A stretch of DNA of 28,109 bases from Corallococcus exiguus (GCF_013155575.1 NZ_JABJTU010000116.1); one strand, 5' to 3'. Positions 10,011-11,081 are shown, numbered from the stretch's first letter. Notes: generated from the sequence alone by a model not told the origin. Made by a program: numbers and translations.

Positions 10011-10760
10011 ATGCTTCAGCGCGCACGGCTCGCGTCGTCGTTCCTCGTCCTTGGACTCCTGGGTGGTGTGGGCTGCGGCCCCGCCACGGAGGAGATGCCC
10101 GTTCCCGAAGCCGCGCCCCAGGAGCAGGCGCCCGTCGCTCCGTCGCAGGACGAAGGTCGCACGGTCACCGCCATGGCCACGACGGCCCTCTCCTGGAACG
10201 ACTTCGGGAAGACGACGGTGCAGTACGTGGCCGAGTGCGTGACCGGGCCCTACACCCACTCGTGCTACTTCTGCGGGACCAATCCGTTGTACTCCGGGGA
10301 GTACAGCGTGAGCGGCTGCACGTCGCCCAGCGACATCCAGAACTCCTGCATCACGTGCGACCGGGAGATCCGCGAGAAGGTGGCCTACGCCGAGCTGCCC
10401 GATGGCGACGTCATCCTCGCGGAGGTCGAGCACAACGTGGCGGGGCCGGATGTCATCGAGTTCCGGCTCAACTCCGGCTCCAACGTGACGTGGTGGAAGC
10501 AGGTCGCCCTCGTGGGCGGCGGTGATGACTGGCGCGTCTGGAACCACAACGGCAGCTCCTGGTGCAACTGGCCCAATGCCTCCACGAACAACTGCGACAC
10601 CAATTCGCAGTGGACAAACATCGTGCAGGCCTCGGGCACCCGCTTCATCTTCAGCAAGGCCAAGCTCTTCGGCATCCACACGGAGATGTATTCATTGGGC
10701 GGTCTGGGTGACCATCTCACCGGTGGCGACCGCGTGACCTTCCGCTGGATCCGCGACTGA
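10011..10760 (+). CDS. Cys-rich lipoprotein, hypothetical (divergent from the MVP-like gene)
   Basis: GGAG at 9999-10002 sits 8 nt before the ATG at 10011. MLQRARLASSFLVLGLLGGVGCG is a signal peptide + lipobox. The mature part is an Ala/Pro/Gln linker then a Cys/Trp/Asn-rich globular region (CYFCGTNP, CITCDRE, WCNWPNASTNNCDTNSQW). The upstream half of the track ORF 8940..10760 is antisense to the MVP gene and was rejected. Confidence 0.65.
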   Translation: MLQRARLASSFLVLGLLGGVGCGPATEEMPVPEAAPQEQAPVAPSQDEGRTVTAMATTALSWNDFGKTTVQYVAECVTGPYTHSCYFCGTNPLYSGEYSVSGCTSPSDIQNSCITCDREIREKVAYAELPDGDVILAEVEHNVAGPDVIEFRLNSGSNVTWWKQVALVGGGDDWRVWNHNGSSWCNWPNASTNNCDTNSQWTNIVQASGTRFIFSKAKLFGIHTEMYSLGGLGDHLTGGDRVTFRWIRD

Positions 10761-10853
10761 GTGACCTTGGATTGCGTCGCGGCGTCTGTTCGAATGCCTT
10801 CCTGTCAGCGGGCCAGGAGGCTCTGACCCGGTGGCCCCCACCCCGGAGGACAC

Positions 10854-11081
10854 ATGAAGGCATCGCGACTGAAGCAGACGATTCCTGGATTCGCGCTGCT
10901 CATCGGCATCATGGCGGGTACGGCCCTGGCCATGGTTCCCGGCTCGACGGCGGAGACGACCGATAACCAGACGTCTGCTGTCCAGATGATCTGTTCGCGC
11001 ACCTGCAAGCCGTGCTCGACCCAGATGGAGTGCGGCACGAGCGGCGGCTCCTGCGGGGTCTGGCGCTGCACCCAGCCGTAA
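10854..11081 (+). CDS. Small secreted Cys-rich peptide (75-aa precursor, ~45-aa mature, 6 Cys)
   Basis: GGAGGA at 10845-10850 sits just upstream of the ATG. MKASRLKQTIPGFALLIGIMAGTALAMVPGSTA is a signal peptide. The mature region is QMICSRTCKPCSTQMECGTSGGSCGVWRCTQP. A strong hairpin terminator follows immediately. Confidence 0.55.
   Translation: MKASRLKQTIPGFALLIGIMAGTALAMVPGSTAETTDNQTSAVQMICSRTCKPCSTQMECGTSGGSCGVWRCTQP

Follow-up and report, generated by a model that had tools for sequence, protein, structure and literature searches.

Gene-encoded disulfide-rich mini-proteins are abundant in eukaryotes, where they include defensins, knottins and toxins, whereas to our knowledge bacteria have few of them, and those have been little studied. 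Myxobacteria, which are predators, are known mainly for their small-molecule antibiotics and lytic enzymes. Here we describe a gene for a 75-residue peptide with six cysteines (MKASRLKQTIPGFALLIGIMAGTALAMVPGSTAETTDNQTSAVQMICSRTCKPCSTQMECGTSGGSCGVWRCTQP), which lies at 10854..11081 on the + strand of a 28,109-nucleotide (nt) stretch of Corallococcus exiguus DNA (GCF_013155575.1 NZ_JABJTU010000116.1; the whole stretch is called the window, and all positions are given in its numbering), within a region under study that runs from 10011 to 11081. Our preferred reading, to which we give a probability of roughly 0.6, is that the gene encodes a Sec-exported mini-protein with three disulfides that would act as a binding effector outside the cytoplasm.

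Amongst the described peptides that come closest, bacterial cis-defensins of the cysteine-stabilised alpha-beta (CSαβ) type are known from the Myxococcaceae, namely corallosin-1 and exiguusin-1 from Corallococcus and xanthusin-1 from Myxococcus xanthus (PMC11561630). Like these the peptide is small, bears a signal sequence, comes from the Myxococcaceae and has six cysteines, with C-x3-C and G-x-C elements. A CSαβ peptide is defined by the pattern C...C-x3-C...G-x-C...C-x-C, in which the helix C-x3-C is disulfide-linked to the strand C-x-C, whereas all 31 members of the family described below lack both a C-x-C partner and any cysteine ahead of C-x3-C. Furthermore the corallosins, which read SQVTCYAFECNASCVAKGFRLGKC... 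(PMC11561630), have no sequence similarity to the peptide, and neither "GVWRC" nor "CKPC" occurs in the supplement of that paper, where 74 bacterial defensin peptides are listed. With the C-x-C and the upstream cysteine missing, and with no counterpart among the published peptides, a CSαβ defensin of classes I-V was rejected.

Fulvocin C of Myxococcus fulvus is the historical disulfide-rich bacteriocin of the myxobacteria, as it is cited in PMC8708641. Both it and the peptide are small, cysteine-rich and myxobacterial, but fulvocin C has eight cysteines in another spacing. When a fulvocin C sequence was used as a control, the model NF033852 found it with E = 1e-6 and 29.5 bits, which is below the curated 35-bit cut-off; neither NF033852 nor the rest of NCBIfam matched the peptide at E up to 10, and BLASTP of the peptide against this fulvocin C sequence gave E = 1.2. 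The absence of a match to this hidden Markov model (HMM), together with six cysteines and not eight, led us to reject a fulvocin C-related bacteriocin.

Knottins, or inhibitor cystine knot mini-proteins, resemble the peptide in having a six-cysteine domain of ~30 residues, hypervariable loops on a fixed scaffold, a conserved prepro region and a multigene organisation. A three-residue first loop is also found in cyclotides and in the potato carboxypeptidase inhibitor, which is a lead only, and we know of no knottin family with the loop lengths 3-2-5-6-4 of the peptide. In contrast to the knottins, which comprise plant protease inhibitors, cyclotides and the toxins of spiders and cone snails, the peptide is bacterial and confined to Myxococcaceae, and no sequence or profile similarity to a knottin family was found in Pfam or PDB.

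More generally the peptide matches nothing in Pfam or NCBIfam at E up to 1, a Pfam scan of the 31 family members gave scattered chance hits only, and profile searches of PDB with the full-length and core-only alignments returned 0 hits at E up to 10 and no fold match either. No description of the family was found in the literature on myxobacterial knottins, on cysteine-rich peptides that are secreted and on the secretome of Corallococcus. As far as its sequence can tell, the family is uncharacterised and has a cysteine framework not seen in any described family; in kind it belongs with the secreted disulfide-rich mini-proteins, with a framework of its own.

The peptide gene

A first-pass annotation, made from the sequence of the window alone, had proposed the small open reading frame (ORF) as a genuine gene, and the sequence that it quoted is exact, 10854..11081 (+) giving 75 amino acids with CSRTCKPCSTQMECGTSGGSCGVWRC. 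It had also supposed that such ORFs are commonly missed by annotators, which is wrong in this case because the ORF already has an NCBI entry as a hypothetical protein, both in C. exiguus and in other Corallococcus. A word-indexed protein search found 12 clusters related to the peptide at 66-99% identity, the majority of which are NCBI "hypothetical proteins" of Corallococcus species, C. exiguus included. An exact-sequence look-up gave no record, because one residue differs between the window peptide and cluster P0001. By the closest protein matches of the peptide and of the protein encoded upstream of it, at 99% identity each, the window belongs to C. exiguus or to a species very near it.

When 185,579 species genomes were scanned with a back-translated pattern, the gene was located at six loci, in C. 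praedator, C. coralloides, C. interemptor, C. exercitus, Myxococcus sp. Y35 and a record titled Comamonas sp. KCTC 72670. The ORF is intact at all six, every insertion or deletion is in frame, and GGAGG or GAGG stands at the same place ahead of the ATG in each. Pairwise ratios of non-synonymous to synonymous change (dN/dS) among the orthologues are 0.23-0.71, and the pooled pN/pS is 0.47 overall, with 0.48 for the signal region, 0.71 for the linker and 0.35 for the core. The frame has a G+C content at third codon positions of 0.84 and is the only one that is open throughout all orthologues. These observations show a genuine gene of 75 codons under purifying selection. Conservation of the ORF and of its cysteine spacing in relatives was the point on which the first-pass annotation had let its proposal depend; it was examined and conservation was found, with the ORF, the cysteine spacing, the Shine-Dalgarno sequence and the downstream hairpin all kept in six other genomes, so the peptide gene stands.

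In the record titled Comamonas sp. KCTC 72670 (BNCN01000002.1) the gene lies on a 969-kb contig, at a locus with a G+C content of 69%; probably the label of this record is wrong or the strain was misidentified. The peptide encoded there is one residue different from that of an ENA metagenome contig (L008).

Architecture of the peptide

The peptide can be divided into three parts. Codons 1-26 (10854..10931, +) encode a predicted Sec-type signal peptide, MKASRLKQ / TIPGFALLIGIMAGTALA, codons 27-44 (10932..10985, +) encode MVPG and then a variable, acidic, Thr/Ser-rich linker that is the least conserved part and may be a pro-region, and codons 45-75 with the stop codon (10986..11081, +) encode the six-cysteine core MICSRTCKPCSTQMECGTSGGSCGVWRCTQP, in which the cysteines are invariant.

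The canonical signal peptide that had been claimed for the ORF is borne out by its layout, with a basic MKASRLKQ, the hydrophobic IPGFALLIGIMAGTALA and then A-L-A|M, where the small residues A24 and A26 occupy positions -3 and -1. The Kyte-Doolittle peak spans residues 12-24 and the hydrophobic stretch is ~17 residues long. All 31 family members have A, T or S at position -3 and A, S or G at position -1, and the sequence features expected of a Sec signal with a signal peptidase I site (a basic n-region, an h-region and small residues at -3 and -1) are all present in the peptide. Signal peptidase I would thus probably cut after Ala26; the mature region then has 49 residues, rather than the "~45" first estimated.

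The signal region is constrained in a manner that exceeds the needs of a generic Sec signal, as G12, A14, L15, G18, G22 and L25 (all within residues 10-29) are invariant in the 31 members and Pro29, at +3 from the predicted cut, is nearly so (at least 90% of members). This may be accounted for by a recognition step of its own, by a motif for helix packing or by the conserved prepro pattern of toxin families. A type IV prepilin-like reading of G12-[FLIM]-A-L was rejected on account of the lack of a Glu at +5, the short hydrophobic segment and the conserved A-x-A site.

By contrast with the core, the linker has only 21-26% pairwise identity and varies in length by ~20 residues, and most family members carry an R or K two to three residues ahead of the first cysteine. 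The six cysteines that had been counted in the mature part (C47, C51, C54, C60, C67 and C72) are present and, together with G65, are invariant in the alignment of 31 protein clusters, down to 29% identity. The framework of the family is C-x3-C-x2-C-x4-6-C-x6-C-x4-C, of which the window peptide represents the form C-x3-C-x2-C-x5-C-x6-C-x4-C, and more fully it can be written C-[ST]-x-[ST]-C-x2-C-x4-6-C-[GP]-x2-[EG]-G-x-C-x4-C, followed by 0-4 residues. An iron-sulfur reading of the C-x3-C-x2-C element was rejected, as the signal is of the Sec and not the Tat (twin-arginine) type and folding would be periplasmic. Across the family the core has a net charge between -2 and +2, so the peptide is not a typical cationic antimicrobial. 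AlphaFold models residues 41-70 with moderate confidence, the predicted local distance difference test score (pLDDT) being 76-88.

Extent and evolution of the family

An exhaustive profile search with hmmsearch, which covered 1.84 billion (1.84e9) protein representatives, gave nine hits, of which two were spurious repeats and seven were true clusters, all of 73-95 residues and of the same architecture. A second, indexed search with a widened profile extended the family to 31 clusters. Those that carry a taxon label are all from Corallococcus, Pyxidicoccus parkwayensis or a metagenome-assembled genome of Myxococcaceae, to which the genome scan adds Myxococcus sp. Y35, and ~14 of the 31 are derived from metagenomes and have no taxon label. 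Among its labelled members, then, the family appears restricted to the Myxococcaceae, that is to Corallococcus and close relatives.

Genomes carry at least two paralogues each. Corallococcus sp. CA054B, for example, has both P0006 and P0035, and C. exercitus has P0045 in addition to the orthologue (locus L005), although in the latter case the strains may differ. Representatives of the paralogues are 62% identical over the hydrophobic and cleavage regions of the signal, 21% over the linker and 36% over the non-cysteine residues of the core, and two of the three variable loops between cysteines fall lower still, to 18% for C54-C60 and 15% for C67-C72. Within the orthologue group, by comparison, the C67-C72 loop (GVWR) is 94% identical. 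Across the family the signal region is therefore more conserved than the loops of the mature peptide, and the combination of a pre-region that is kept, a Cys/Gly scaffold that does not vary and loops that change fast is, by analogy, the one known from gene families of toxins, defensins and inhibitors.

Conserved signal peptides are typical of toxin and defensin families. The MgCRP-I family of Mytilus is described in PMC4558851 as having a highly conserved signal region, a hypervariable mature peptide and six invariant cysteines. The myxobacterial peptides show the same mode of evolution, which is also that of the conotoxin superfamilies; they are not homologous to these animal peptides, which come from unrelated organisms, and the analogy is one of evolutionary mode alone.

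Expression signals and genomic contexts

The good Shine-Dalgarno sequence that had been noted is GGAGG at 10845..10849 (+), which can be read directly 4 nt ahead of the ATG and is kept in the orthologues. Further upstream ~75 nt 5' of the gene are conserved, including TTGGAT-N17-TCGAAT, and this holds also in C. praedator where the upstream gene is a different one. On the strength of this conservation TTGGAT (10767-10772) and TCGAAT (10790-10795), separated by a 17-nt spacer, form a candidate promoter (10767..10795, +), plausibly the peptide gene's own. A scan of 9700-11300 for sigma-70 promoter and intrinsic-terminator consensus sequences made no call, the candidate promoter being passed over because its second hexamer falls outside the rule that was applied. 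A sigma-54 reading (GG-N10-GC) of the conserved upstream TTGG...GC was discarded by eye on account of the wrong spacing. Folding of the stretch between the gene and its upstream neighbour, which encodes a predicted lipoprotein, revealed no notable hairpin, and therefore read-through from the lipoprotein gene is also possible.

Downstream the gene had been said to be followed directly by a strong terminator. What holds is the hairpin, a perfect G+C-rich stem of 14 bp with a 4-nt loop (11087..11118, +) that begins 6 nt past the stop codon and lies between the peptide gene and the convergent nadC; the 81-nt stretch around it folds with -39.7 kcal/mol, at z = -5.2 against shuffles. What does not hold so well is the strength, in that the T tail is weak (TCTCTG) and did not pass the T-run rule of the consensus scan, which left the hairpin uncalled. 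The orthologous hairpins have better, T-rich tails such as GGCTTTT, and the stem is maintained in them by compensatory changes (CCGAG/CTCGG to CCGTG/CACGG).

The homology of the window DNA with that of other Corallococcus around the gene runs from about 10722-10766 to 11115, and this conserved block, which consists of the upstream blocks, the Shine-Dalgarno sequence, the ORF and the hairpin, occurs in six or more different neighbourhoods. The gene adjoins the vault-protein gene in C. coralloides, C. interemptor and C. exercitus, and the genes downstream differ. In C. praedator (RAWI01000067.1, 2331-12228) it is found inside a polymorphic-toxin/immunity island with genes for an AHH nuclease, Imm11, Imm49 and an Exo_endo_phos protein, then DUF2169, a Tox-PAAR-like protein and a second AHH-Imm11 pair. 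The remaining orthologues and paralogues stand beside unrelated genes. The eight contexts compared share no neighbouring gene, and no modification enzyme, ATP-binding cassette (ABC) transporter or immunity gene is common to any two. The gene is a stand-alone, autonomous unit with its own Shine-Dalgarno sequence and hairpin, which would be transcribed independently.

Synteny with the other Corallococcus loci (L002, L003, L005 and L018) stops at 11115, right after the hairpin, where the window continues with nadC and valS and C. interemptor with genes for DUF6310, DUF5953, RdgC and a peptidase. Downstream of the vault-protein gene there lies a hot spot of rearrangement.

Function of the peptide

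The sequence of events that we envisage starts with a stand-alone, independently transcribed gene for a pre(pro)peptide, which would be exported by the Sec pathway and cut by signal peptidase I, probably after Ala26. A second trimming may occur just ahead of the cysteine-rich core, near the R or K found there in most members. The C-terminal core of ~30 residues would then be locked by three disulfides in the oxidising periplasm to give a rigid mini-protein, and this could bind to a protein or an envelope component of other organisms when the cell competes, preys or defends itself. A binding-effector role is the most likely one because the family combines a conserved pre-region and an invariant Cys/Gly scaffold with fast-changing loops in the paralogues, and a housekeeping role is less likely. 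The position of the C. praedator gene in a toxin/immunity island and the moderately confident AlphaFold core are also counted in its favour. We infer from sequence that the signal is cleaved, that disulfides form, that the peptide leaves the cell and that it has an antagonistic or ligand role.

Several observations weigh against the effector reading. The near-neutral core is unlike that of cationic membrane-active peptides, and in the contexts compared there is no linked immunity or export gene of the sort that a self-toxic bacteriocin would need. The Sec pathway reaches only the periplasm in a Gram-negative cell, such that release past the outer membrane has to be assumed. One would not usually expect invariant residues such as G12, G18 and G22 in a signal peptide that is discarded, and they may point to a retained membrane anchor, and the toxin-island context is found in one species only, C. 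praedator.

A possible though doubtful alternative is that the peptide inhibits proteases in the manner of a knottin or a Bowman-Birk inhibitor, as a disulfide-rigid molecule with the basic residue of S-C-[KR]-x-C as P1, which would shield the envelope of the producer from its own or its prey's proteases or would block an enzyme of a competitor. The size, the three presumed disulfides and the variable loops on a fixed scaffold would all fit, 28 of the 31 members have K or R between the second and third cysteines, and a near-neutral charge is more to be expected of an inhibitor than of a membrane-active peptide. It does, however, show no likeness to any inhibitor family in Pfam or PDB, the contexts compared hold no conserved protease neighbour, and the supposed reactive-site residues differ between paralogues.

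It seems unlikely that the N-terminus stays uncleaved, which would make the product an inner-membrane-anchored protein with a periplasmic cysteine-rich knob that works cell-autonomously, for instance as a module for redox chemistry or metal binding or as an accessory subunit within a complex of the envelope. The invariance of G12, A14, L15, G18, G22 and L25, which includes a G-x3-G and makes this region more conserved than the mature loops, would be readily understood in an anchor, and the C-x3-C-x2-C and C-x-x-C spacings present in the peptide are of a kind that can bind metals. Nevertheless all 31 members keep small residues at -3 and -1, a helix-breaking Pro follows at +3 in at least 90%, the hydrophobic stretch is only ~17 residues long, and there are neither conserved His or Met ligands nor the twin-arginine motif that cofactor-loaded export would need. 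It is also a matter of general knowledge that toxin and defensin families typically have conserved signal peptides, the MgCRP-I family discussed above being an example.

The upstream lipoprotein gene and remaining alternatives

Upstream of the peptide gene, at 10011..10760 (+), lies an ORF of 249 amino acids that encodes a predicted lipoprotein of a separate conserved family. The two ORFs had been described as a divergent pair, which is not so, as both are on the + strand and stand in tandem 93 bp apart; the real divergent partner of the lipoprotein gene is the homologue of the major vault protein at 7485..9761 (-). The description of the lipoprotein as rich in Cys, Trp and Asn is accurate, with 9 Cys, 9 Trp and 14 Asn counted in 249 residues. 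Its N-terminus has a hydrophobic region ending ...LLGGVG-C22-GP, in which C22 is invariant in 16 homologues and position -1 is G or A, in line with a lipoprotein; the lipobox is a relaxed one because position -3 is G or A and not the canonical L. UniRef names two of the homologues "Lipoprotein". The family comprises 16 clusters in Corallococcus, Myxococcus, Pyxidicoccus and Archangium, in which eight Cys, that of the lipobox among them, and nearly all Trp are invariant. The protein matches nothing in Pfam or NCBIfam at E up to 1, and PDB profile searches gave 0 hits at E up to 10. Its AlphaFold model has a mean pLDDT of 69, with residues 1-54 disordered and the remainder mostly beta, from which it may at most be taken for a surface or periplasmic binding module.

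Could the two genes form a functional unit in which the lipoprotein serves the peptide as a receptor, a chaperone or an immunity protein? In the window they are direct neighbours in the same orientation, 93 bp lie between them and no hairpin intervenes, and the tandem probably recurs in a few other Corallococcus, as P0017 and P0009 come from contigs of equal length and so do P0015 and P0007. When the window gene (10011..10760) was compared with what is left at the orthologous sites (L002:3837-3884, L003:3765-3926, L018:7771-7929), the remnant in C. coralloides was found to consist of the last 16 codons and that in C. interemptor to be a degraded ~94 residues, called as a 52-residue gene; in C. 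exercitus there is no lipoprotein sequence at the site, and a 56%-identical copy is located elsewhere. The lipoprotein gene is thus at different stages of loss in sister species, and in all three the peptide gene is intact. Furthermore the peptide occurs without a lipoprotein in C. praedator, in Myxococcus sp. Y35 and at all paralogue loci, and conversely six-frame HMM and regular-expression scans of 4 kb around the lipoprotein homologues of C. exercitus, Myxococcus fulvus and Archangium minus found no member of the peptide family. The pairing suggested in the first-pass annotation therefore does not survive, and the comparative data largely refute a two-gene unit, which we regard as very unlikely. 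Because the contexts of the peptide gene vary and lipoprotein homologues stand without it, the two ORFs are neighbours by history in a variable region.

It is most improbable that the gene encodes the precursor of a peptide synthesised ribosomally and then modified post-translationally (RiPP) or a class II bacteriocin with dedicated export or immunity. The conserved N-terminus, variable linker and cysteine-rich C-terminal core do bear a superficial likeness to a leader and core, but no modification enzyme, ABC transporter or immunity gene recurs between contexts, the N-terminus is of the Sec type and neither a double-glycine nor a RiPP leader, and NCBIfam, its SCIFF and fulvocin models included, gave no hit. 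RiPP precursors such as SCIFF/ranthipeptides and lanthipeptides were rejected for the want of a maturase neighbour in the eight contexts along with the Sec-type N-terminus and the lack of an NCBIfam match, and a class II bacteriocin locus since the gene is a monocistronic module with its own Shine-Dalgarno sequence and terminator and has no immunity gene, ABC exporter or double-glycine leader.

Finally, spurious long ORFs are frequent in this window, which has 69% G+C, but the probability of a chance, untranslated ORF is next to nothing, as the comparative data (ORF, Shine-Dalgarno sequence and cysteine positions kept across genomes and contexts, dN/dS below 1 and in-frame indels) already refute it, short of direct proof of translation.

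Neighbouring genes

The vault-protein homologue has 758 residues and is a bacterial relative of the eukaryotic major vault protein, with matches to the Pfam families Vault, Vault_2, Vault_3, Vault_4 and MVP_shoulder at E down to 9e-45. It is 97-98% identical in other Corallococcus, and the peptide gene is beside it in four species and elsewhere in others. Bacterial homologues of the major vault protein are reportedly discussed in a preprint (10.1101/872010). To the 5' side of the vault gene ~2.7 kb (about 4786..7506) have no counterpart at the C. coralloides and C. interemptor loci, where the flanks are contiguous, and this difference reflects either an insertion in the window or a deletion in these two species.

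On the other side two genes converge on the peptide gene, namely nadC (11150..12028, -) and beyond it valS (12038..15532, -). The valS product is a valyl-tRNA synthetase of 1164 residues with a long Lys/Ala-rich repeat extension at its C-terminus, which recalls histone-H1-like tails.

Implications for the Myxococcaceae

The family is taxonomically narrow and every member of it is annotated as a hypothetical protein. We tentatively put forward, as a possibility and not the likelier outcome, that it represents an undescribed fold and family of bacterial mini-proteins, that is a new three-disulfide framework confined to predatory Myxococcaceae which was diversified by paralogy, in the manner of toxin and defensin genes of animals, and is secreted against prey or competitors. 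If this is true, the CSαβ defensins would not be the only gene-encoded disulfide-rich weapons or ligands of myxobacteria, and a second class would stand independently beside them. A Myxococcaceae-specific family of this kind would supply cheap, synthesisable candidates of ~30 residues, for which antimicrobial, antifungal or protease-inhibiting activity is possible, and the core of the peptide may offer a new scaffold for peptide engineering.

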